The notes under the pieces were generated by a model, which did not search any database, was not told the DNA's origin, and saw only the letters and a program-made list of their open reading frames with translations. Positions 2,430 through 20,204 of a DNA stretch of 64,000 bases are shown here, piece by piece. How positions within the stretch are numbered: position 1 is the stretch's first letter; each line of letters opens with the position of its first letter. Source of the DNA: Okamejei kenojei (Eukaryota); contig CM069137.1 in the NCBI GenBank assembly GCA_035221665.1, positions 76,694,001 to 76,758,000 of the forward strand. The letters are read 5' to 3'. Made by a program: the position numbers and the translations under genes.

Positions 2430-3336
2430 ATTGGCAATAGGTGCAGCAGTAGGCCATTGGCCCTTCGAGCCAGCATTGCCATTCAATGTGATCATAGCTG
2501 ATCATCCCCAATCAGTACCCCGTTCCTGCCTTCTCCCCATATCCCCTGACTCCGCTATTTTTAAGAGCCCTATCTAGCTCTCTCTTGCAAGCATCCAGAT
2601 AACCTGCCTCCACCTCCCTCTGAGGCAGATGATTCTCAGACTGACCACTCTCTGTGAGAAAAAGTGTTTCCTCGTCTCTGTTCTAAATGGCTTACTCCCT
2701 ATTCTTAAACTGTGGCCCCTGGTTCTGGACTCCCCCAAAACTGGGAACATGTTTCCTGCCTCTAGTGTGTCCAAGCCCTTAACAATCTTATATGTTTCAA
2801 TTAGATCCCCTCTCATCTTTCTAAACTCCAGTGTACAAGCCCAGCTGCTCCATTCTCTCAGCATATGACAGTCCCGCCATCCCGGGAATTAACCTTGTAA
2901 ACCTACGCTGCACTCCCTCAATAGCAAGAATGCGCTTCCTCAAATTAGGGGACCAAAACTGCACACAATACTCCAGGTGTGGCCTCACTAGGGCTCCGTA
3001 CAACTGCAGAAGGACCTCTTTGCTCCTATTTTCGATTCCTCTTGTTATAAAGGCCAACATGCCATTTGCTTTCTTCACTGCCTGCTGTACTTGCATGCTT
3101 ACTTTCATAGATTGATGTACAAGGACCCCCAGATCCCGTTGTACTTCTCCTTTTCCCAACTTGACGCCATTTAGATAGTAATCTGCCTTCCTGTTTTTGT
3201 TACCAAAGTGGATAACCTCTCATTTATCCGCATTAGACTTCATCTGCCATGCATCTGGCCACTCCCCCCAACCTGTCCAAGACACCCTCCATTCTCATAG
3301 CATCCTCCTCACAGTTCACACTGCCACCCAGCTTTG
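2430..3336 (-). mobile_element. 5'-truncated CR1 (HER1-like) LINE: RT C-terminus and 3' tail
   Basis: QRDLGVLVH...LVRPHLEYCVQFWSP...LRGDLIETYKI motifs across two frames; tail GGCCATT.GGCCCTTCGAGCC. Confidence 0.93.
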
Positions 3337-5203: not shown

Positions 5204-8200
5204 ATAGAAACATAGAAAATAGGTGCAGGAGTAGGCCATTTGGCCCTTTGAGCCTGCGCCGCCATTCAATATGATCATGGCTGATCATCCAACTCAGTAT
5301 CCTGTACCAGCCTTCTCTCCATACCCCCTGATCCCTTTAGCCACAAGGGCCACATCTAACTCCCTCTTAAATATAGCCAATGAACTGGCCTCATCAACCT
5401 GTGGCAGCGAATTCCACAGATTCACCACTCTGTGTGAAAAATGTTTTTCTCATCTCGGTCCTAAAAGACTTCCCCCTTATCCTTAAACTATGACCTCGTG
5501 GTCTGGACTTCCCCAACATCGGGAACACTCTTCCTGCATCCAGCCTTTCCAACCTCTTAATTTTGTAAGTTTCTATAAGATCCCCCCTCAATCTTCTAAA
5601 TTCTAGCGAGTACAAGCCGAGTCTATCCAGTGTTTCTTCATATGAAAGTCCTGCCATCCCAGGAATCAGTCTGGTGATCCTTCCATGTATGGCAAGAATG
5701 TCTTTCCTCAGATTAGGAGACCAAAACTGTACACAATACTCCAGGTGTGGTCTCACCAAGACCCTGTACAACTGCAGCAGAACCTCCCTGCTCCTATACT
5801 CAAATCCTTTTGCTATGAATGCTAACATACCATTCGCTTTCTTCACTACCTGCTGCACCTGCATGCCTACATTCAATGACTGGTGTACAATGACACCCAG
5901 GTCTCGTTGCATCTCCCCTTTTCCTAATCGGCCACCATTCAGATAATAGTCTACTTTCCTGTTCTCGCCACCAAAGTGGATAACCTCACATTTATCCACA
6001 TTATACTGCATCTGCCATGCATTTGCCTACTCACCCAACCTATCCAAGTCACCTTGCAGCTTCCTAGCATCCTCCTCACAGCTAACACTGCCCCCCAGCT
6101 TCGTGTCATCCGCAAACTTTGAGATGTTGCATTCAATTCCCTTGTCCAAATCATTACTATATATATCGTAAATAGCTGGGGTCCCAGCACTGAGCCTTGC
6201 AGTACCCCACTAGCCACTGCCTGCCATTCTGAAATAGACCTGTTTACTCCTACTCTTTGCTTCCTATCTGCCAGCCAGTTCTCTATCCACATCAATACTG
6301 AACCCCCAATACCGTGTGCTATAAGTGTGTATACTAATCTCTTATGTGGGACCTTGTCGAAAGCCTTCTGAAAGTCCAGATATAACACATCCACTGGTTC
6401 TCCCTTTTGACTCTACTAGTTACATCCTCGAAAAATTCTACAAGAGTCATCAGATATGATTTACCTTTCATACGTCCATGCTGACTTTGTCCAATGATTT
6501 TACCACTTTCCAAATGTGCTCTGGAATTCTCTGCCACAGAAGGTAGTTGAGGCCAGTTCATTGGCTATATTAAAGAGGGAGTTAGATGTGTCCCTTGTGG
6601 CTAAAGGGATCAGGGGGTATGGAGAGAAGGCAGGTACAGGATACTGAGGTGGATGATCAGCCATGATCATATTGAATGGCGGTGCAGGCTCGAAGGGCCG
6701 AATGGCCTACTCCTGCAACTATTTTCTATGTTTCTATGTGCTGCTATCCCATCTTAAATAACTGACTAGCATTTTCCCCACTATCGATGTTAGACTAATT
6801 GGTCTGTAATTCCCTGTTTTCTCTCTCCCTCCCTTTTTTAAAAGTGGGGTTACATTAGCTACCCTCTAATCCTCAGGATCTACTCCAGAACCTAAAGAGT
6901 TTTGAAAAATTATCACTAATGCATCCACTATTTCTGGGGCTACTTCCTTAAGTACTCTGAGATGCAGCCTATCTGGCCCTGGGGATTTATCGGCCTTTAA
7001 TCCATTCAATTTACCTAACGCCACTTCCCGACTAACCTGGATTTCACTCAGTTCCTCCATCTCATTTGACAACCGGCCCCTGCTATTTCTGGCAGATTAT
7101 TTATGTCTTCCTTAGTGAAGACAGAACCAAAGTAGTTATTCAATTGGTCTGCCATGTCCTTGTTCCCCATGATCAATTCACCTGTTTCTGACTGTAAAGG
7201 ACCCACATTTTTTTTAACTAATCTTTTTCTCTTTACATATCTATAAAAACATTTGCAGTCAGTTTTTATGTTCCCTGCCAGTTTTCTTTCATAATCTATT
7301 TTCTCTTTCCTAATTAAGCCCTTTGTCCTCCTCTGCTGGACTATGAACTTCTCCCAGTCCTCTGGTAGGCTGTTTTTTCTGGCTAATTTGTATGCTTCAT
7401 CTTTTGTTTTGATACTATCCCTGATTTCCTTTGTTATCCATGGATGCACTACCTTCCCTGATTTATTCTTTTGCCAAACTGGGATGAACAATTGTTGTAG
7501 TTCATCCATGCAGTCTTTAAATGCCTTCCATTGCATATCCACCGTCAACCCTTTAAGAATCAATTGCCAGTCTATCTTGGCCAATTCACGTCTCATACCC
7601 TCAAAATTACGTTTCTTTAAGTTCAGAACCCTTGTTTCAGAATTAACTATGTCATTCTCCATTCTAATGAAGAACTCAACCATGTTATGGTCACTCTTGC
7701 CCAAGGCGCCACGCACAACAAGACTGCTAACTAACCCTTCCTCATTACTCAATACCCAGTCTAGAATAGCCTACTCTCTCGTTGGTTCCTCTACATGTTG
7801 GTTTAGAAAACTATCCCGCACACATTCCAAGAAATCCTCTTCCTCAGCACCCCTGCCAATTTGATTCACCCAATCTATATGTAGATTGAAGTCACCCATT
7901 ATAACTGTTTTACCTTTGTTGCATGCATTTCTAATTGGTCACCCTGGAGCCATGTCTCTGTGATCCCAACTATATCATATCCTTTAACAACTATCTGCAC
8001 GTTCAACTCATCCACCTTATTACGAATGCTCCTTGCATTGAGGCACAAAACCGTCAGGGTTGTTTTTACAACACTCTTACCCCTTATACAATTATGTTGA
8101 AAAGTGGCCCTTTTAGATTTTTGCCCTGGATTTGTCTGCCTGCCACTTTTACTTTTCACCTTGCTACCTACTGCTTCTACCCTCAATTTACACCCCTCTG

Positions 8201-8239: not shown

Positions 8240-8355
8240 TAAGTTATGGGGAGAAGGCTGGAGAATGGGGTTAGGACGGAAAGAGATCAGCCATGGCAGA
8301 TTAGACTTGATGGGCCAAATGACTTAATTCTGCTCCTGTCACATGATCTTATGAA
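8240..8355 (+). mobile_element. CR1/HE1-type 3' tail fragment
   Basis: GGGGAGAAGGC...GATCAGCCATG...GATGGGCCAAATG.C.TAATTCTGCTCC; related copy on the minus strand at 15070-15195. Confidence 0.65.
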
Positions 8356-8369
8356 TCACTGTGTAATGC

Positions 8370-8825
8370 CCTATACCTACTCCCTCGCATCCATACAGGA
8401 TGTTCACACGCATCTCCTCTAACTCTATTGTATCCGTTCCCGATGTGGCTTCAGTGAGACCAAGCGTAGATATGCCGACTGTTTTGCCAAACACTCGCGC
8501 TTGGTTCGCCAAGGCTTACTGGATCTCCTGGTTGCTGACCATTTTAATTCCCCTTTGCATTCCCATATAGACAATTCTGTCCTGGGCCTTCTCCATTGCC
8601 AGAGTGAGGACATATGCAAACTACAAGAACAGCACCTCATACTCTGCTTGGGTTGCTTACAACCCAATGGAAAGAAAATGTAATTCTCCAATTTTGGGTA
8701 ATTAACCTACAAACACCCCGACCTCCTCTCTCCTCCCGCACTTCCTTATGCCTCACCTTGATGTGCACCCATTTCTTCCCTTCCACCTATATATCTTTAT
8801 ATCATCTTTATATCTTGCTTTATAT
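8370..8825 (+). mobile_element. Penelope-like element, decayed GIY-YIG endonuclease C-terminal region
   Basis: VADHFNSPLHSH...LGLLHCQSE...LQEQHLILCLGCLQPNG, homologous to 26700-27010. Confidence 0.85.
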
Positions 8826-8827
8826 AT

Positions 8828-9344
8828 GGTTTATATCAACGGGTCGAAGGTTGAAAGGGTCAAGAGCTTCAAATTCCTGGATGTGCACATCTCTGAAGAT
8901 ATTTCCTGGTCTGAGAACACTAATGCAATTATTAAGAAAGCACATCAGCGCCTCTACTTCCTGAGAAGATTACGGAGAGTCGGTTTGTCAAGGAGGACTC
9001 TCTCTAACTTCTACAGGTGAGAGCATGCTGACCGGTTGCATCGTGGCTTGGTTCGGCAACTTGAGCGCCCTGGAGAGGAAAAGACTACAGAAAGTAGTAA
9101 ACACTGCCCAGTCCATCATCGGCTCTGACCTCCCTTCCATCGAGGGGATCTATCGCAGTCGCTGCCTCAAAAAGGCTGGCAGTATCATCAAGGAACCACA
9201 CCATCCTGGCCACACACTCATCTTCCCGCTACCCTCAGGTAGAAGGTACAGGAGCCTGAAGACTGTAACGACAAGGTTCAGGAATAGCTATTTCCCAACA
9301 GCCATCAGGCTATTAAACTTGGCTCGAACAAATCTCTGAACACT
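8828..9344 (+). mobile_element. Rex1/Babar LINE, 5'-truncated RT C-terminal fragment
   Basis: INGSKVERVKSFKFL...KKAHQRLYFLRRL...LPSGRRYRSLKT.TTRFRNSYFPTAIRLLN. Confidence 0.9.
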
Positions 9345-12300
9345 AATAGTAAGATTAAACGAGAACTTACCAGTTCAAAGTTTGATCGTTATTTTATGAG
9401 GAGTAACGATGAGGGATTACGTGAAGAAGCCCCGCCTGGCGCTGGAACGGCATACTTCAAAGCAGCGGCATGAAAAACACAGAACATAATAGCCGGAGTA
9501 AGATAGTAAGGCTCAACATAGATTTAGAACTACCAGATGATCATTTATTTTATGAGGGTCGGGAGTGGAGGGCACGTAATCCCTCATCGTTACTCCTCAT
9601 AAAATAACGATCAAACTTCGAACTGGTAAGTTCTCGTTTAATCTTGCTATTTTACTTCGGAGTCACGTGAGTGACTACATGAAGATTTTGAAGCTTTCTG
9701 TGTTTTTTATGTCGTAGACTCATTCCATACGACACTCTGGCTCATTCAACACAGTAATGAGCAAAATAACACATTTTTTTCCTCCAAACATTGCCTCAAG
9801 TTATGTGATAAAGTATTTCACGTTATAAAAGAATAAAAGTAATGCCCTTTCCATTGAAAGGCAAATTTATCACAAAATATCAATTGATAATATAATTTGA
9901 TGGTATGAACAAAGCAACAATTATAGAGAACCCAACACTCCGTGTCCAATCCTGACACCATGACTGGTTCCATTTAATTTAATATTTATTTTACACCCTC
10001 CCGTGGCCTTGAATCTTTGCTCGAGCGGCTCATCCTGTGCCATTCCTGTGAATGTATCTACCTCCTTAACAGAGTGATTTTCCACATTTCAGTGTCTAGT
10101 TCCACTGAGTGTTATTCAAGTTTTAACCATCTAGAATACATTTCTCTAGAACCATCAGTTTTTACTGAAACCGAATGTGGTTTTTTGTGTGTAATAAGTA
10201 GTGCTTTCTCACCACCACAGACTCTTACCTACTTCAACATATTTCATCAATGTTGACTCACACACAATTTATGGCCGACAGGATATGCTTATAGATTTAC
10301 CTTGGTTTCAGCTCTTCTTGGTCTGCTTTGTTTGGTAAATTCATAAACATATATGATAATGTAATCTGTATCCACATGCAATTATAACGTAATATTTGCA
10401 ATGTTTGCACTCTTATGTTGATACTAAAGTCATGAGCATTATTACTTTCAATGTTAACTTTTTTGAATCATTGATAGAATTGGAGTCCATTGCCTAAGGC
10501 AATTCAGGACTATATTAATATCCCGACTTATGTCTTGCAACTTTGGACAGATTATATATATATATCTATATTTATATCTACATATATATCCCTTTTTCCA
10601 TATCGGGATATTACGAATGAACCCGATAACCTTTTGGTTAGTAGATTGTCCGTAAATGGGACGATAACACTCTGAGCCCTACTATTGGCTCTATCAATTA
10701 GATACTCAGAAAAAATGCAATCCACAAGGAACTCACATATATCTAATATAACAAATAACTTTACTGTCTACACAGACTTCCAATTTCTTATAACAAAATT
10801 TTGTTTTTTAAAACTTATTTCTCCAAATTGGAGGTGTAACACTTCTTTTATACATAATTATTTTATTGTTATGTTGTTATATTAGTTAAAACATTCATGG
10901 ACTTCTTTGACCATCAACTGTTGTAATGGTCTGGTCAACCTGCAGATAGTCAAATTCATATTTTCATGTCATGGATGCCTTTGTACAACAATAAATTACT
11001 GCAACTATGAATCATCACAAGTGGTTCAACATCACTCAATATTTATGAAAACCATGAAGGTCCGTTTTGGGCCACCAAAGCGCCTCTGGCAGTGTCCTGC
11101 TGCATTTTCATCAGACACTGCCCTATCAGACAAAAAATGAGGAACATAAAAGAACATCTTTCCTCATGTAATTGAGAGAAATGCATCCACCTTTCCTGTT
11201 CTTGGTTTACCCACGAGAACATTTGAAAGATCGGTGATTTAATCTGTATACAACCAGATTAATCGTAAGTAATCCATATTACTGACAATGTATTTTCCCC
11301 CCTTAATTTGTTGTCTGCGATAACATTGTCTCTTTCTTAGAGATAAACAGCTGGACTAAAACATTTTAGAATATGCCACATCTGTCTACTCAGATAATCA
11401 CATGATTATTATTTTACTTATCTTATGTGATTTAATATATGCCACAGCCGTGGCATTGTTCACCTTGATATGACATGGACACTTCCACAATAGAACAATC
11501 GATATTTAATCCATAACTCCTTATACTTCAATAATTAATACAAATGTTTTGGAGAAATTTCTTAGGACAATCCATTTGCAATTACCTGGTATTATTGTCC
11601 GTAGTCCCAACAAGAGACGTATCAATTATCTTTATAAGAATAGATATTATTCTTATCTTACCCAAATATTCACAGAAGCTGTCCATCATCTGTTAATACT
11701 TGCTTCAGCTTGCAACAGCTACTAAGCTTATAGTTGAAGCAGCTTGTGAACCTTTTTTTTTTTTTTAATCCATTACTTTAATAATGATAATGTATCATTT
11801 GGTATTTGCATAGGCCTCGCACAAAGGCATACATATTCTTATAAGCTTCTGTATTCCATCTTTTGGAGCTTTATTTACTCTTTACCTAGGCTCCTTTTCT
11901 AATGGAGGGACAAAGTATGTCAACAAAGCAATGAGACGTATTTGTATCATGGAACAATTTTCCCCCTCTTATGGTGCTGAATTACTCCCAAATCCAGAAT
12001 AGTAATTTATGAATATTTATGAATGCCTAAACATAGGCTTTATGTGATGGGTCAGGTCCTTGCCTTTCAACAGGCTTGTAATTGCAGCACTAATTTGCAG
12101 CTGACTCTTTATAACCTTCCAATTTAAATGTGATCAAGATAAACCATGACCATGTCCTCATTAGTGCAAGTGCTGATCTTTTTATCAGTACAATTGTTCT
12201 TCCAGTATTCTGTTTAACAGCCTTGAACTGGTTTTAATCCTTTAGACAATGTTTTAACCTGCACAGCTTGACCCATTTTAATTAATTTCAAGCACCTGTA

Positions 12301-14356
12301 ATATTTGATTAACAATTTGTTAATAACAACTGTATTTCAATGTTGAAGATGTTTCCATTTTAATAAAATGTTTTTACACTGTGAAAGTGTATATAAAATG
12401 ATGTTTTGTATGGTTTATACCATCACATCTTTACACTGAGGTAATTTTATAATATATATATGTACGTACCCCTTCTTTATTGGAGTTACTTTGGGTGCAA
12501 ACCTAAAATCATTTTTTTAGGTTTTCTTATACAGGTGAACCAATTTCTACTACAATTTTTTGTAGTCCTTAGTTATATTAAATTAATGATCATAATACAC
12601 CTGTAATTATGATAATTAATTTTGGAGATTTCATCAACTTATTTTGTAACAAGTTGTTTGCACCTCTTCAACGTACTTCAAGCCTTCTTTTCCCAATTAT
12701 ATGGGTTCAGATAAGGCTATGTTGGATAATATTTATTTATCATACTTTGTTTTGATCCATTATCAAATCTTTATATTGTATCATAATTTTTCCCCCCCAA
12801 AGTTTAAAGACCAATAGTCTGTTCTTTTGTAATCAATGTTTTGATTTATCATAAGGCAGGTTTTATTCCATAATAATCAGGAGTTTAACATAACCTGATT
12901 TGTATTGATCTGCAAATCTAGAGTGCAGATTAGGTCCCTATACAATTACATATATATAACTAAAATTAATATTATATATTTCTTCCCATTGAGCTCCACA
13001 AACTGATGGCAATTTATTTTTATTTTAAATGTATTGGTTATTTGCACAATGTTTTCCATTGAATAGTGATGCCATGCACCAGTTTGAAATACTTTGAAAT
13101 CGTATTTCCTTATATCTCATATAATTGAGACATGGATATCATAAACGGATTCACCGTTGATATCCTTATAAAACATAAAAGTTTTATCATATTCTGCTGT
13201 TTCAACCATAACAGCTTTGGTGAGACCAATTAATTTTTGGTTTCCATGTTTACTTTCCATGGCCTCACTCATTCATTCGGGTATCGTACCTAGTACACCT
13301 CTATATATATATTTTGTGCTGAGGTGTACCTGAATAAAACATAAAAGTTTTATTTTATTCTGCTGTTTTAACCATAACAGCTTTAGTGAGAGACCAACTA
13401 ATTTTGGTTTCCATGGTTATTTTCCATGGCCTCACTTCTTATTCAGGTGTNNNNNNNNNNNNNNNNNNNNNNNNNNNNNNNNNNNNNNNNNNNNNNNNNN
13501 NNNNNNNNNNNNNNNNNNNNNNNNNNNNNNNNNNNNNNNNNNNNNNNNNNNNNNNNNNNNNNNNNNNNNNNNNNNNNNNNNNNNNNNNNNNNNNNNNNNN
13601 NNNNNNNNNNNNNNTTATGACCAGCCACCACTATCAGTGCACTTTTAGGGTCAGTTTTCCATTTTGTTTTTACTGCCCTTGTTACTCCTGAGTTTTTCCC
13701 TCAAGGAGACTACCTCCAAACATATCTGAGGTAGATATTTCCACAATATTTCATCATATATATTAATATATGAAACCCCCTTAGGGTAGGTTAGGGAATG
13801 TTTTTGGGCCTTTTAACCCTTTTTGGTTGAATTATTGATTTTTTTTTTTTTTTTTGGAATCTTTTTCCATTATTTTTTAGTCTGAAGGCCTTTTATTGAA
13901 CCTTTTAAATTATGGCCTTTCTGACTTTATTAAATTCCCCCCCCCCCCCCCCCCCCCCGCCAAAAGTTTGTTGGAGCGATTAAAAATCTTCCTAACGTAA
14001 TTTTGACGGCCACCGGTATAGGAACCGGCTCCGTAATCTCCCGTCCCGATCGCTTCCCCTGGGACGTTCTTTTAAAAATCTGTTGTTTTTAATCAGAGTA
14101 TTTCCTTTTTATTTTATTTTAACTTTTACTTATTTTTTGCTTTTAAAATTCGTTTTAAATCCTGGTGTTCAATACCAGCCACAGAGGTTTTAGACCCTGA
14201 AAGGTTTTCAACTGTACTTGCCTGCGGGCCCGTACCTACCGCTGTCGAGGAGCTGCCTCTGCAGCTCATGCTCTGCCGTCAGCGTCGACGTAATGCCGTT
14301 CCAGCGCCAGGCGGGGCTTCTTCACGTAGTCACTCACGTGACTCCGAAGTAAAATA
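9345..14356 (-). mobile_element. DIRS1-type tyrosine-recombinase retrotransposon: intact termini and ICR, decayed RT/MT/YR
   Basis: Perfect 36-bp ITR 9418-9453 / 14293-14328; ICR 9573-9685 complementary to both ends; relics VYLDH (12130-12141) and LLITHKKPH..SRWLK..HSVK (10065-10204). Confidence 0.9.
13168..13440. repeat. imperfect 166-bp-period duplication next to an assembly gap (N 13451-13614)
   Basis: ATAAAACATAAAAGTTTT...CCATGGCCTCACT begins at both 13168 and 13334. Confidence 0.85.
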
Positions 14357-14537
14357 ACCCATTATCTGTTATTTGCACTTTATCAGTTTATTTATTTATG
14401 TGTGTATATATTTATGCAATGGTATACGAACACACTGATCTGTTCTGTAGTCATGCCTACTATGTTCTGTTGTGCTAAAGCAAAGCAAGAATTTCATTGT
14501 CCGATCAGGGTCACATGACAATAAACTTTCTTGAATC
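14357..14537 (+). mobile_element. 3'UTR and end of the interrupted Rex1/Babar element
   Basis: Resumes directly after the DIRS end; ends AAGAATTTCATTGT...ACAATAAAC..TCTTGAATC. Confidence 0.7.
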
Positions 14538-14539
14538 TC

Positions 14540-14782
14540 CTCTAGTTTCATAATTTGCATTTCTATCTTTCTCACATCTTTTATGTTTTCATATCTGGCC
14601 TTTGACCAACCATCTGCCTATCAAAAATCCTCTCATCTGTGTATACCAATCACTTCCAGCTCCCCCCACGCCCAGCTACAATCAGTCAGAAGAAGGGTTC
14701 CAACCTGAAATGTCACCTGTCCCATGTTCTCCAAAGATGCTACCTGACCAGTTCAGTTACTCCAGCACTTTGTGTCTTTTTA
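14540..14782 (+). mobile_element. 3' terminus of the interrupted Penelope-like element, with a hammerhead-like core
   Basis: CAGTCAGAAGAAGGGTTCCAACCTGAAATGTCACC...TACTCCAGCACTTTGTGTC, homologous to 26480-26575 (minus). Confidence 0.75.
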
Positions 14783-15069
14783 TGTTAATCTGCTCAATGG
14801 AATTAATATGTTTGGAGAGCCAGTTTATTTTACAATTTAAACATCGGGTAAACTGAAGCCAAATTCACAACTTTGCCATTGATTTCAACACCTCAGTATC
14901 GCATCTGGTTAAACTAGATCTTATTGAAACCTGAATAATTCTGAAGGGGTTTAGATCATTAAAAAATACTGATATTTCCATTGTTATTCTCCACTGGAAT
15001 TAAAATTGTGGTTGACCATGCATTTAGTTTTTAAAATCGGACAATTTTTTAAAAACAAAATTACTTAAA

Positions 15070-15195
15070 TGACCATAAGACATTGAAGCAGAATTAGGTC
15101 ATTCAGCCTATCAAATCTACTCTGCCATGCAACAATGCTGATCTAGTTTTCCCTCTTAACCCCATTCTTCTGCCTTCTCCCTGTAACCTTTGGCA
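15070..15195 (-). mobile_element. CR1/HE1-type 3' tail fragment
   Basis: CATAAGACAT.G.AGCAGAATTAGG.CATTCAGCC...CTGCCTTCTCCCTGTAACC. Confidence 0.65.
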
Positions 15196-15392
15196 CTTGA
15201 AAAAACACTTTAAAACATCAACATTTTTTTCACGGTTACATTTTCAAAATTTATGTGAACTAAAATTCTGGTGCTTTAGTATAGCCAGGTGATGTTACTA
15301 AATGGTTAAAGTATTGTGCGTCACAATAAATGCTTGTACTAAAGTGATGTACGAAATAAGACAGAACATGTTTATAGGTGCGGAAAACATGC

Positions 15393-15398
15393 TTTATT
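15393..15398 (-). promoter_or_regulatory. probable titin polyadenylation signal AATAAA
   Basis: AATAAA on the minus strand about 1.1 kb after the stop, followed by GT/T-rich sequence; proximal candidates at 16364 and 16398. Confidence 0.55.
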
Positions 15399-16513
15399 TC
15401 ACAAACAAATTCAGTTTTACTTTTCTAATTCTCAAGGAGGTCCAATAATATAAACTAAACACTACTTATCTAAATAAAGTTATTGCATAGGGCATTATAA
15501 TGTTGGAACACAGTGTAATTTTCAATGTGCTAATTTCTGTTGTCAATGCCCTAAGAACAAATAACATTAAATATAATTCTACGACTACCACACAAAACCA
15601 GTGCATCCCATGGAAAACCTCCTTGGGTTAGCACTGCTTCTACATAGGAGAACTTGGAATAGTTTGCTGACATGAGGGTATGACCAGGTTGATGTATTTA
15701 TACTATTCAAGAAGTCACCATGCTAGAAACAGGGCAATATGGTTATACAAAGTAATGGCCGCTTATACTTTGTATTCATCATTGATTATCTTGTCTATGT
15801 TAAACAGTGATATGACATAGTCGGTTCATTGGCTGTTGTGATGGTATTCGCAGGAGGGTATTTGCAAATAGCATCACAAGGCTAGCCATCTAATTCCACA
15901 AACTCGTAGGTTGTCTTCAGCAGGGAGCCTCTCCACCTGCTGAGGTATTCTTAGACATCAACATTGCGTTGAGGCACAAATTTTAGTTCCAAGTTAAACA
16001 AGGTAATCGTCCTATTCAAACTTTCCCCTGCTAACTATCAGTTTCAAAGTTGCAATGAAAATCTCATGAAACACAAGGTACAAAACTTGCATAACCGTTT
16101 AGACCGGCTATATACAGTATGTACATGTCACAGAAAATGGTAAAAAATTCCTAAATCAAGTGCAATAATTCTTTACTGCACAATCTATCATTTGTTCAGA
16201 AATTGTCAGGTTCGGTATAAATGCATGGTGTCAAGTCAGGTACAAAAAATAAAATAATATATACAAGTCAGATTCAAGTTCATTACAATTACAATATCTA
16301 TTAATTTTCCAGTTTACACAATGCCCCTCACAGTGGGAACCATTGTGGGGGGATGTTTTTCTGTTTATTGTTAAATTCTTTAATGTTGTGTCTTATTTTT
16401 ATTGCTGTGCTGCAGATGGCAAGTCAAATTTCACTACACCAATTGGTGTATGTGGTAATAAATGTCCTTTGTCCTTTGTTTAGCTTACAACGTGTGTTGT
16501 CAGATTCAAATCT

Positions 16514-16812
16514 TTAAATTGATCTAATTTTAATATTTACAGTGGCAGAATCTGATCCAAATTCATTTGAGAGTCTTAAAGTGTAGCGTCCTGCATCGTT
16601 TTCTTGGACACCTGTAATAATGAGTGTTGTTAGATCATCTGTAGTTTCAATGTGGAATCGGCCACCTTCTACTTCATCAGAAAGAGGTTTTCCTCCACGT
16701 GACCATTTTACTTGAGGCAGGGGTTCACCTGAGAAAGCACAGGCCACTGTTAAAACTTTTCCTTTCTCGATTGTGATATCCGATGGTAAAGCTTCGATTT
16801 TAGGAGAAGACC
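16514..16812 (-). CDS. ttn: titin Mex6 (M10) to the stop codon
   Basis: SSPKIEALPSDITIEKGKVLTVACAF...GRFHIETTDDLTTLII...NEFGSDSATVNIKIRSI* (TAA at 16514-16516). Confidence 0.97.
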
Positions 16813-16913
16813 CTGTTTAAAAAAAAGAAACAAGAGGGTAATTTGTGTCTCTGTCCAGCACACTGGATATAATTAATAGAAAAAAAATTAATGCGCTTTA
16901 GTAATAACATCAC

Positions 16914-17189
16914 CTTTAATACTACCGCTAATCATTCTGCCAGTACTTGCTTCCAACTGACTCATACTGGAATGCTCCATAAAAGAGCTGGAGCTCGATG
17001 ATATCCTCGATTCTTTAAAAGATGACATACTGCTTGAAGACATACTGGCAAACTTAACTTCACTCATGCTGCTGCTGGCCTCTTGCTTGGACATTTGCAA
17101 TGTTTTGGAAGAGAAATGTTCCTGCATCATAGCGGAGGCACTGGCACCGGAGTCTAAAACTACCAATTTTGAAGGTTCTTCAAGGAGAC
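16914..17189 (-). CDS. ttn: titin Mex5 (Ser-rich is7, 276 bp, symmetric phase-1 cassette)
   Basis: LLEEPSKLVVL...KQEASSSMSEVKFASMS...GSIK; CAG / GTGATG; length divisible by 3. Confidence 0.93.
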
Positions 17190-17369
17190 CTGTAGAACAT
17201 AGAGTATCACGCATCACACGATAATTGATCAAGGAAAACCATCAACATATTTGCATCTAGTTTAAATTTTAAATCGTGTACAGTATTTTCAAGTGAAACT
17301 TTGTTCTATGTTGTACTAAAGGATGTTCTATAAAATGCCAAGATAATAAACAGAGAATAAGAGGTGGTG

Positions 17370-20204
17370 GGTTTCTTAGATATGTATATGTTAATGCTAG
17401 GAGAATTGTAAGAAAGGTGGATGAGCTTAGAGCCTGGATTGACACCTGGAAGTATGATGTTGTGGCGATTAGTGAAACATGGTTGCAGGATGGCTGTGAT
17501 TGGAAACTAAATATTCCAGGATTTCGTTGCTTCAGGTGTGATGGAATTGGAGGGGCAAGAGGTGGAGGTGTTGCATCGCTTGTCAGGGAAGATATTACAG
17601 CAGTGCTTTGGCAGGATAGATTAGAGGGCTCGTCTATGGAGGCTATTTGGGTGGAACTGAGAAATGGGAAAGGTGTAGCAACTCTTATAGGGGTGTATTA
17701 TAGACCGCCTAATGGGGAGTGAGAATTGGAAGAGCAAATATGTAAGGAGATAGTAGATATTAGTAGTAAGCACAAGGTAGTGATTGTGAGAGATTTCAAT
17801 TTTCCACACATAGACTGGGAAACACATTTTGTAAAAGGGCTGGATGGTTTGGAGTTTGTAAAATGTGTGCAGGTTAGTTTATTTGCAGCAATACATAGAG
17901 GTACCTACTAGAGAAGGGGTAGTGCTGGACCTCCTGTTAGGAAATGAGACAGGTCAGGTGGTGGAGGTATGTGTTGGGGAGCACTTCGGGTCCAGTGATC
18001 CAGGGTTCAATATAATTATGGTGAAGGTCAGAACTGGTCAGAAGGTCAGAGAAGGGTTGAGATTTTTGATTGGAGAAAGGCTAACTTTGAGGAGATGCGA
18101 AAGGATTTAAAAGGAGTAAATTGGGACATTTTGTTTTATGGGAAGGATGTAGTAGAGAAATGGAGGACATTTAAAGGTGACATTTTAAGAGTACAGAATC
18201 TTTATGTCCCTGTTTGGTTGAAAAGAAAGAGTAATAATTGGAAAGAGCCATGGTTTTCAAGGGAAATTGGTTCAGAAAAAGAGAGAGATTACAATAATTA
18301 TAGGCAGCATGAAGTAAATTAGGTGCTTGAGTATAGAGAATGTAAAAAGAATCTTAAGAAATAAATTAGAAAAGAAGATATGAGGTTGCTTTGGCAAGTA
18401 AGGCGAAAGTCAATCCAAAGGGTTTGCTACAGCTATATTAATAGCAAAAGGATAACGAGGGATAAAATTGGTCTATTAGAGAGTCAGAGTGGACAGCTAT
18501 CTGCAGAGCCAAAAGAGATGGGGGAGATATTGAACAATTTATGTTCTTCGGTATTCACCAAGGAGAAGGATATTGAATTATGTGAGGTAAGGGAAACAAG
18601 TAGAGTAGCTATGGAAACTATGAGGATCAAAGAAGAGGAAGTACTGACACTTTTGAAAAATATAAAAGTGGATAAGTCTCCAGGTCCTGACAGGATATTC
18701 CCTAGGACATTGAGGGGAGTTAGTGTAGAAATAGCAGGGGCTATGACAGAAATATTTCAAATGACATTAGAAATGGGAATGGTGCCGGAGGATTGGCGTA
18801 CTGCGCATGTTGTTCCATTATTTAAAAAGGGTTCTAAGAGTAAACCTAGCAATTATGTAAACCTGTTAGTTTAACGTCAGTGGTGGGCAAATTAATGGAA
18901 AGGATACTTAGAGATAATATATATAATCATCTGGATAACAGGGTCTGATTAGGAACAGTCAACATGGATTTGTGCCTGGAAGGTCATGTTTGACTAATCT
19001 TCTTGAATTTTTTGAAGAGGTTACTAGGGAAAATGATGAGGGTAAAGCGGTGGATGTTGTCTATATGGACTTCAGTAAGGCCTTTGACAAGGTTCCACAA
19101 GGTTGGTTAAGAAGGTTCAATTGTTGGGTATTAATAGTGGAGTAGCAAGATGGATTCAACAGTGGCGGAATGGGAGATGCCAGAGAGTAATGGTGGATAA
19201 CTATTTGTCAGGTTGGAGGCCGGTGACTAGTGGGGTGCCTCAGGGATCTGTGTAGGGTCCATTGTTGTCTGTCATATACATCAATGATCTGGATGAAGGT
19301 GTGGTAAATTGGATTAGTAAGTATGCAGATGATACTATGATAGGTGGTATTGTGGATAATGAAGTCGACAGAGAGATTTAAGCCATTTGGAAGAGTGGGC
19401 TGAAAGATGGCAGATGGAGTTTAATGCTGATAAGTGTGAGGTGCTACATCTTGGCAGGACAAATCAAAATAGGATGTTCATGGTAAATGGTAGCGAATTG
19501 AGGAATTCAGTTGAACAGAGGGATCTAGGAATAACTGTGCATAGTTCCCTGAAGGTGGAATCTCATGTAGATCGGATGGTAAAGAAAGCTTTTGGTGTGC
19601 TGGCCTTTATAAATCAGAGCATTGAGTATAGAAGTTGGGATGTAATGTTCAAATTGTACAAGGCATTGGTGAGGCCAATTCTGGAGTATGGTGTACCATT
19701 TTGTTCGCCAATTATAGGAAAGATGTCAACAAAATAGAGAGTACAGAGGAGATTTACTAGAATGTTGCCTGGGTTTCAGCACCTAAGTTACAGAGAAAGG
19801 TTGAACAAGATGGTCTTTATTCTTTGGAGCGCAGAAGGTTAAGGGGGGACTTGATAGAGGTCTTTAAAATTATGAGAGGGATAGACAGAGTTGACGTGGA
19901 TAAGCTTTTTCCATTGAGAGTAGGGAAGATTCAAACAAGAGGATTTGAGAATTAAGGGACAAACGTTTAGGGGTAACATGAGGGGAACGTCTTTACTCAG
20001 AGAGTGGTAGCTGTGTGGAATGAGCTTCCAGTGGAAGTCGTGGAGGCACGTTCGATTTTATCATTTAAAAATAAATTGGATAGGTATATGGACGGGAAAG
20101 GAATGGAGGGTTATGGTCTGATGGGACTAGGTGAGAGTAAGTGTTCGGCACGGACTAGAAGGGCCAAGATGGCCTGTTTCCGTGCTGTAATTGTTATATG
20201 GTTA
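17370..20204 (+). mobile_element. near-complete CR1 ORF2 pseudogene in the titin Mex4-Mex5 intron, antisense to ttn
   Basis: VNARRI..KVDEL, AISETWL, GVYYRPPN, KSPGPD, MDFSKAFDKVP, SGVPQGS, YADDT, 3' tail; multiple stops and frameshifts. Confidence 0.95.

Follow-up and report, generated by a model that had tools for sequence, protein, structure and literature searches.

The DIRS1-like element and its termini

The window analysed here comprises 64,000 nucleotides (nt) of Okamejei kenojei DNA (GenBank assembly GCA_035221665.1, contig CM069137.1, forward-strand positions 76,694,001 to 76,758,000) and holds a DIRS1-like retrotransposon, with its sense on the minus strand, whose ends are intact and whose genes are dead (Table 1). 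It lies in the 3' untranslated region (UTR) of a long interspersed nuclear element (LINE) which we take to be Rex1/Babar. Part of the element is contained in 20 of 24 listed public runs, and four of these were mapped on 9100-14600 at 85% likeness, copies less alike than this being invisible: X2 (organism A, DNA), X8 (marked as probably DNA), X13 (organism B) and X21. In some contigs the left flank continues without interruption as the right flank, with joints from 9347 to 14369 and from 9349 to 14358, thus placing the element within one LINE and making it younger than that LINE. An original prediction had claimed that removal of the element restores a continuous Rex1 3' UTR; the empty-site joints now add to this claim, the name of the LINE staying an assumption.

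The predicted anatomy of the ends was reproduced at every coordinate. The inverted terminal repeats (ITRs) are perfect over their core and 89% identical over 65 nt once the divergent part is added, and the two parts of the internal complementary region (ICR), which pair with the two termini, share a junction 4-mer at 9648-9651, AATA being present at both ends of the element. The sides of the ICR had been named the other way round, as the minus-strand sense makes 9648-9685 the left and 9573-9651 the right part. The ends and the ICR agree in 114 of 117 paired bases and their likeness breaks off sharply at the limits given; with three mismatches, the “fresh” ends of the prediction are fresh in a relative sense. 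To judge by the sequence, changes of CpG type account for two of the three (9377 and 9679), and at 9679 the matching letter is found in most of the family depth (2.53 of 3.57 million in X2, 470 of 470 in X13 and 9,499 of 10,015 in X8). The 3'-most 416 nt give a long ICR-terminus hairpin (z -15.75), although this only re-expresses the complementarity of the two. Beside the ICR, the second arm (9696-9714) of an extra 19-nt inverted repeat occurs in variant form in more abundant families, with a loose end at 9695.

No long terminal direct repeats, as would mark the split direct repeats of Ngaro, PAT-like or VIPER elements, were listed, and self-BLAST of the ends gave inverted matches only. There is no true target-site duplication, as seen from the AATA at the ends and the empty-site joints, and the overlap is of 4 nt, not 3. 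The element fits the DIRS1-like structural definition, failing only autonomy. A polymerase chain reaction across the circle junction had been proposed, but the junction sequence is the reverse complement of the ICR but for one base, so that the ICR itself would amplify; a joint from 14352 to 9345 was rejected as proof of a circle on the same ground, the ICR itself having that sequence.

The interior has no long open reading frame (ORF) and is AT-rich, as had been predicted. Between 9686 and 14292 no stop-free stretch exceeds 92 codons on the plus or 74 codons on the minus strand, there are 78-105 stops per frame, the open pol and tyrosine recombinase (YR) frames of an autonomous DIRS1 are lacking, and GC is 0.33 vs 0.39-0.40 in the flanks. 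Depletion of CpG in the interior (observed/expected, o/e, 0.36) was rejected as proof of decay, since three of six intact pol frames also give 0.30-0.37. The 5' leader, which likely represents a putative internal promoter, has 18 CpG where 5.3 would be expected from the interior rate, a number reached in none of 195 flank windows. There is one run of N (164, at 13451-13614), its stated size being close to that of one further unit of the 166-nt-period duplication; depth is low over the second such unit (2,114 at 13354 vs 92,983 at 13165).

Table 1. Features of the DIRS1-like element and of the LINE around it, in window coordinates
Feature	Position	Strand	Remarks
Host LINE, 3' coding end	8802..9344	plus	PF09004, E 3.9e-11; one frame break; stop 9337-9339
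Whole DIRS1-like element	9345..14356	minus	5,012 nt including the 164-N gap
Divergent ITR (9390-9417) and right extension (9345-9389)	9345..9417	minus	77-90% identical to 3' ends/ICRs of intact DIRS loci
Conserved ITR, 3' arm	9418..9453	minus	36/36 vs reverse complement of 14293-14328
Extra 19-nt inverted repeat flanking the ICR	9466-9484 / 9696-9714		89%; absent from the minimum-energy fold
Right ICR, template of the 3' terminus	9573..9651	minus	Reverse complement vs 9345-9423, 2 mismatches in 79, E 9e-33
Left ICR, template of the 5' terminus	9648..9685	minus	Reverse complement vs 14319-14356, 1 mismatch in 38, E 1e-11
YR relic, catalytic half	9999..10522	minus	6 frameshifts, 2 stops; 14/20 invariant residues
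RNase H end and methyltransferase (RH-MT) relic	10933..11483	minus	7 frameshifts, 4 stops; 21/45 near-invariant residues
Reverse transcriptase (RT) and connection relic, weak	11495..12759	minus	YLDH at 12141-12130 in the YLDD position; colinear
166-nt-period duplication	13168-13282 vs 13334-13448		88%; runs into the N gap to 13614; place expected for ORF1 (gag)
CpG-rich 5' leader	13990..14292	minus	18 CpG in 303 nt, o/e 1.22; putative promoter
Conserved ITR, 5' arm	14293..14328	minus	36/36 vs 9418-9453
5' terminus	14319..14356	minus	Pairs with the left ICR at 37/38; sense strand opens with TATT
Remaining host LINE 3' UTR	14357..14540	plus	From contig joints and depth; right limit approximate

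Relics of the pol and recombinase genes

Reference loci were obtained with a degenerate methyltransferase (MT) motif pattern, which gave 26 loci in metagenome contigs and none in viral contigs. Pfam analysis of 11 frames from these loci identified four DIRS-type pol frames (RVT_1; three also with Dam or PCIF1_WW), five recombinases and one other RT, with one frame left without a match, and a profile built from 11 pol frames found 120 further proteins. Relics were scored by a custom frameshift-aware alignment to intact DIRS profiles, the plus strand, the reversed sequence and shuffles serving as controls.

The catalytic half of the YR (10522-9999) reached 82.4 bits, the controls (plus strand, reversed and eight shuffles) at most 18.6, and HSVK replaces HSTR at 10076; the score of the N-terminal half equals that of the best shuffle (40.8). 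The relic carries a six-codon insertion relative to the profile at 10140-10157, which is common to other copies, as contig record 17 of X8 crosses this region with one gap letter. The RH-MT relic (11483-10933) reached 81.8 bits vs 18.9 in two controls, with P0028 as its best single protein (39% identity over 187 residues). Choosing the reference loci by the MT motif makes the MT match partly circular, a limitation that the YR match is free of. The RT relic scored 22.2 vs a maximum of 22.5 in 20 shuffles; a second scoring gave 93.8 vs a maximum of 88.6 in 40 shuffles, but 96.3 in the reversed control. The original prediction had named peptides of all three genes on the minus strand: they are found in their places, and the YR and MT-like relics are significant, but the RT relic is not so by itself.

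Measured from the 3' end, HSVK, the FPPF equivalent, NNAT and YLDH lie at 725, 1,793, 2,109 and 2,790 nt, compared to 769, 1,800, 2,169 and 2,850 nt in the intact metagenome locus L024. This spacing, together with the length of the intact element of locus L002 (5,264 nt vs 5,012 nt here), indicates that the element is full length and colinear.

Similarity searches with the dead frames returned little. Pfam gave no match in the three whole minus frames and one chance-level match (E 0.2) among six relic pieces. With phmmer, a 430-residue frame found three matches among 1.84 billion proteins; two are repetitive and were judged spurious, and the one retained, P0006, is an independent fragment of 50 amino acids, 70% identical over 33 residues, in a non-coding frame. 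Relic searches by protein word index and against PDB sequences found no match. An atlas search gave nothing usable for a YR piece of 38 amino acids, and for an MT piece of 70 amino acids it was headed by unnamed clusters (0.92-0.93), clusters with Dam and PCIF1_WW at 0.81 providing a lead.

Copies of the family and the timing of gene loss

The dead interior is present in many copies. In X2, 74,796 contigs, flanks and ends included, cover 30 of 30 bins, as do those of X8, whilst X13 covers 28 of 30; X21, a run of raw reads, is uninformative, having only five reads, all less than 90% alike. A letter other than that of the window is carried by at least 30% of the depth at 153 (X2), 166 (X8) and 204 (X13) of about 5,110 scorable sites, i.e., 3.0, 3.2 and 4.0% with the LINE flanks included. 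At many interior sites, such as 11102 (809,293 of 809,370, 68 contigs) and 12259 (668,832 of 668,975) nearly all of the depth is unlike the window, and the contigs therefore derive from other loci. Total depth over the remainder runs into the thousands, from which a family of hundreds to thousands of copies is suggested, with the caveat that depth added up over contigs does not equal copy number; the interior contigs differ from the window copy by 2-14%, which points to subfamilies. The original prediction had looked to many copies alike in the dead interior, and these were found, with all 30 bins covered in two runs at about 3% site difference. The presence of the family in X13 was rejected as proof that two species share it, as the low LINE depth there (253) would fit a minor contamination with DNA like that of organism A; a GC-ward mutational bias in the window copy was also rejected, the full counts being balanced (62 vs 57, X2).

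The lesions are in part shared among the copies. Record 6 of X13 (11584-11756) has three differences from the window and no gap, and its minus frames contain four, two and six stops, counted with the three letters shown by all X13 depth there. In the YR, records 17 and 18 of X8 have net lengths of -1 and +1 and are thus out of frame by frame count. Lesions found in part of the family, such as those at 11132 and 10218 (see below), fit a stepwise loss along successive masters.

The end module extends beyond this family. Depth in the ICR bin is 20.5, 16.7 and 33.6 times the interior median in three runs, a ratio which is inflated by the mutual complementarity of ICR and terminus, and 135 contigs depart from the window sequence at 9695; from the two together it follows that other families share the module. 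Five of the 26 reference loci, from unrelated metagenome contigs, have a 3' end or ICR which is 77-90% identical in DNA to that of the window element (L024:13-311, L011:53-401, L002:103-385, L020:3789-3853 and L016:1-63, against window 9345-9660), many of the other loci being cut short of their ends, and L024 begins with nearly identical terminal bases. In contrast, the proteins of the intact DIRS loci are about 30-39% identical to the relics. Conservation is thus far stronger in the terminal signal than in the genes, and in the 3' terminus with the ICR one DIRS1 clade appears to have a cis signal of deep conservation. The exact terminal 21-mer has no match in the viral or in the metagenome contigs. 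One of the loci, L002:97-5360, is complete: within a metagenome contig of 5,855 nt, this DIRS1-like element spans 5,264 nt and has its ITRs, its ICR and three open frames.

The host LINE, which is nearly intact, provides an independent argument on timing. It is open at 8802-9017 and, after one frameshift, open again to its natural stop, i.e., one break in 538 nt, vs 19 breaks (13 frameshifts and six stops) in 1,075 nt of relics (binomial p=0.003; the LINE breaks were tallied from its own frames, without a reference protein). The relics together keep 35 of 65 near-invariant residues, taken from columns conserved at >=95% among 118 pol proteins (two of the 120 were dropped for length) or invariant among 10 recombinases. 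When neutral decay was simulated on three intact frames for each relic, the fractions kept by RH-MT and YR were 0.90 and 0.96 at 3%, 0.66 and 0.67 at 15%, and 0.47 and 0.55 at 25%, so that the observed retention needs about 20-25% decay for RH-MT and about 15-20% for YR. On this estimate the relics would lie roughly 15-25% away from any functional sequence, a figure which is rough owing to the distant DIRS references and the assumed indel model. Considering the residues kept, the contrast with the LINE and a multi-copy family which differs by about 3%, the genes appear to have been dead before insertion, and long before the last transposition as was originally proposed.

The best explanation is a multi-copy, full-length DIRS1-like family with its ends and ICR intact, which likely lost its genes long before this insertion and likely moved in trans (probability about 0.74). 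Gene death, anatomy, relics, multi-copy interior and LINE contrast are the observed part of this. In the DIRS1-like model, ends are repaired on the ICR as template, a junction is formed and the recombinase integrates without target duplication (PMC3266345). For DIRS-1 itself, the RT has been shown to act in trans and the ICR to be indispensable (PMC7192593). From the observed part we infer a helper, transcription, a circle and a succession of masters. The minus strand would be transcribed from the CpG-rich 5' leader and reverse transcribed by the RT of a helper; both ends would be rebuilt on the ICR and joined at the AATA/TATT junction; and the tyrosine recombinase of the helper would integrate the product at AATA in the LINE 3' UTR, leaving the 4-mer at both ends. 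An autonomous DIRS with a matching terminal signal would provide the proteins in trans, and selection would then act on the ends, ICR and leader only, so that lesions in pol and YR would accrue from master to master whilst length and gene order persist. More tentatively, and on balance we doubt it, the family could be a protein-less DIRS1 parasite lineage which passed through many masters, drifted by 15-25%, kept its full length, as DIRS replication would depend on that length or on cis signals in the interior, and switched helpers via the conserved ends.

The origin of the present copies can also be told in other ways. It is unlikely that a fossil which had long decayed in place recombined with an active family, thereby regained a fresh ICR and ends, and was then spread by one or a few bursts in trans, with no continuous lineage; here too the genes would have died before insertion. 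The end/ICR module is indeed common to far more abundant families, depth dropping steeply at about 9700-9850, and the heavy indel load resembles genomic decay. However, the 2-14% spread of the interior and the partly carried lesions fit successive masters, and the leader has interior-like depth (250,597 at 14220) and so does not come from the abundant ends, yet its CpGs were kept. The trans mobility and the long-lived lineage of the original prediction are supported by these data, although the former is reached indirectly and the latter is not firmly separated from a fossil revived once.

It is considerably less probable that a dead DIRS was multiplied passively, by segmental duplication or within a larger repeat, its ends being homogenised by gene conversion from the terminal module. 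The termini are sufficiently abundant to have served as donors for conversion and none of the loose-end rows seen (20 of 1,527) lies at 9345 or 14356, where no different flanks are thus proven; against this, the element stops exactly at the junction 4-mer within a far less damaged LINE, empty-site joints are present, and conversion would have to mend four separate tracts yet skip the interior. Least probable of all is that an intact DIRS decayed in place after insertion or that scaffolding joined two halves of different origin into a chimera. No contig bridges the 164-N gap, depth has its minimum around it (9,000-18,000 in X2, in bins partly N or masked), and some frameshifts are missing from part of the family, but in-place decay of 15-25% is incompatible with ends which match at 97% and with a single break in the host LINE; moreover, a single LINE is formed when the flanks are joined, and the ICR in the left half matches the terminus in the right half.

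The preferred explanation, a family mobilised in trans after the loss of its genes, has nevertheless to be weighed against several points, the roughness of the decay figure among them. The zero-decay controls of the simulation are partly members of the conserved-residue sets. The RT relic is weakly supported, by its position, and falls below significance by score alone, and gag, for which there is room at about 12800-13990, gave 19.6 bits vs a shuffle maximum of 21.1 with a profile of eight distant ORF1s. Indels at 11132 (30-32% of the depth in three runs) and 10218 (46, 60 and 32%) coincide with two of the 13 frameshifts, shares which short contigs may understate, and those two frameshifts are therefore not family-wide. 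The rows seen were 40 of 268 for substitutions and 12 of 87 for indels, in addition to the loose ends, so that most single stops are not comparable; with the remaining rows, fewer of the lesions might prove to be family-wide. No contig spanning the whole element or the N gap was found in the mapped runs, and no autonomous partner was seen in the mapped contigs, where the interiors of the end-sharing families did not show. Finally, the Dictyostelium experiments achieved reverse transcription in trans of a construct without proteins, whereas the full cycle was not demonstrable (PMC7192593).

Neighbouring repeats and comparison with known systems

On either side of the LINE, 8243-8334 and 15087-15187 contain a pair of inverted matches (40-43 nt long, 85-86% identical), which are probably two opposite-orientation copies of a common short repeat. 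Decayed LINE-type RT fragments, matched by the RT frame of locus L008, lie at 2878-3264, 5655-7009 and 18479-19689 and account for strong GC-skew blocks in the window.

With the DIRS1-like elements described by Piednoel et al. 2011 (PMC3266345) the element in the window shares conserved and divergent ITR parts, a right extension, a two-part 3' ICR overlapping at the circular junction, ATT ends and the domain order RT-RH-MT then YR. Its end geometry is nearest to that of AcaDIRS1 from Aplysia, in which the divergent, conserved and extension parts measure 36, 32 and 48 nt and the ICR 45-88, as compared to 28, 36 and 45 nt and an ICR of 38-79 here (PMC3266345). It differs from the DIRS1-like type in its closed frames, its 4-nt overlap in place of 3, its YLDH and HSVK motifs and its lack of a gag signal. 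In the intact metagenome loci L024, L011 and L002, which have the similar 3' terminus and ICR, pol and YR are open over 724-800 and 330-347 codons, respectively, unlike in the window element; at the protein identity given above, none of the three is the parent family.

DIRS elements are present in cartilaginous fishes, among others (PMC4350176). The word DIRS occurred in none of the 15 papers that a search of the elasmobranch literature listed, and DIRS is not mentioned in the available part of bioRxiv 2025.06.08.657570. The terms “non-autonomous DIRS” and “nonautonomous DIRS” led to a single work, on TOC1, as a journal article and a preprint. No full-length ITR/ICR family with colinear dead genes was met in titles and the starts of abstracts, a search to which Repbase, Dfam and most subscription journals were external; such families have perhaps already been deposited in Repbase or Dfam, and how novel the family is may also depend on the tables of families in PMC9210276 and PMC3266345. 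Among the DIRS-like Repbase families of Xenopus, 36 of 75 in X. tropicalis have degenerate repeats and/or ORFs; these are vertebrate ITR/ICR elements too, but in the available text they are treated as cases of degeneration, not of continued movement without genes (PMC9210276).

No new mechanism is required, as non-autonomous derivatives are expected in most transposon orders; those of the DIRS order are already known from TOC1 and SIRE, and a specialist would expect a non-autonomous DIRS. TOC1 has split direct repeats and is not known to contain gene relics, and the pol of Morgane is degenerate. TOC1 of Chlamydomonas is termed a non-autonomous DIRS retrotransposon (PMC9940879), and SIRE of Trypanosoma cruzi is a short non-autonomous derivative, of about 435 nt, of VIPER, an element with split direct repeats (PMC6681497); both resemble the window element in being non-autonomous members of the tyrosine-recombinase retrotransposon order, but neither, as far as these sources go, combines ITRs and ICR with full-length colinear relics. 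LARD and Morgane, named as non-autonomous long terminal repeat (LTR) retrotransposons (PMC2844528), are likewise long, have kept their cis signals, lost their coding capacity and been moved in trans, but they are plant LTR/integrase elements with neither ICR nor tyrosine recombinase.

Surveys for DIRS based on ORFs or domains would miss families such as the one described here, Pfam being blank on these frames, and such families would look much older than they are if dated by the decay of their genes. A comparison of copies would map the cis needs of DIRS replication, as the parts conserved while the genes rotted. A natural family inserted with dead genes addresses the step of the full cycle in trans which the Dictyostelium assay left open, and, if it is true that a parasite lineage has persisted, nature would thereby have proven that the entire DIRS cycle, up to and including integration, works in trans.

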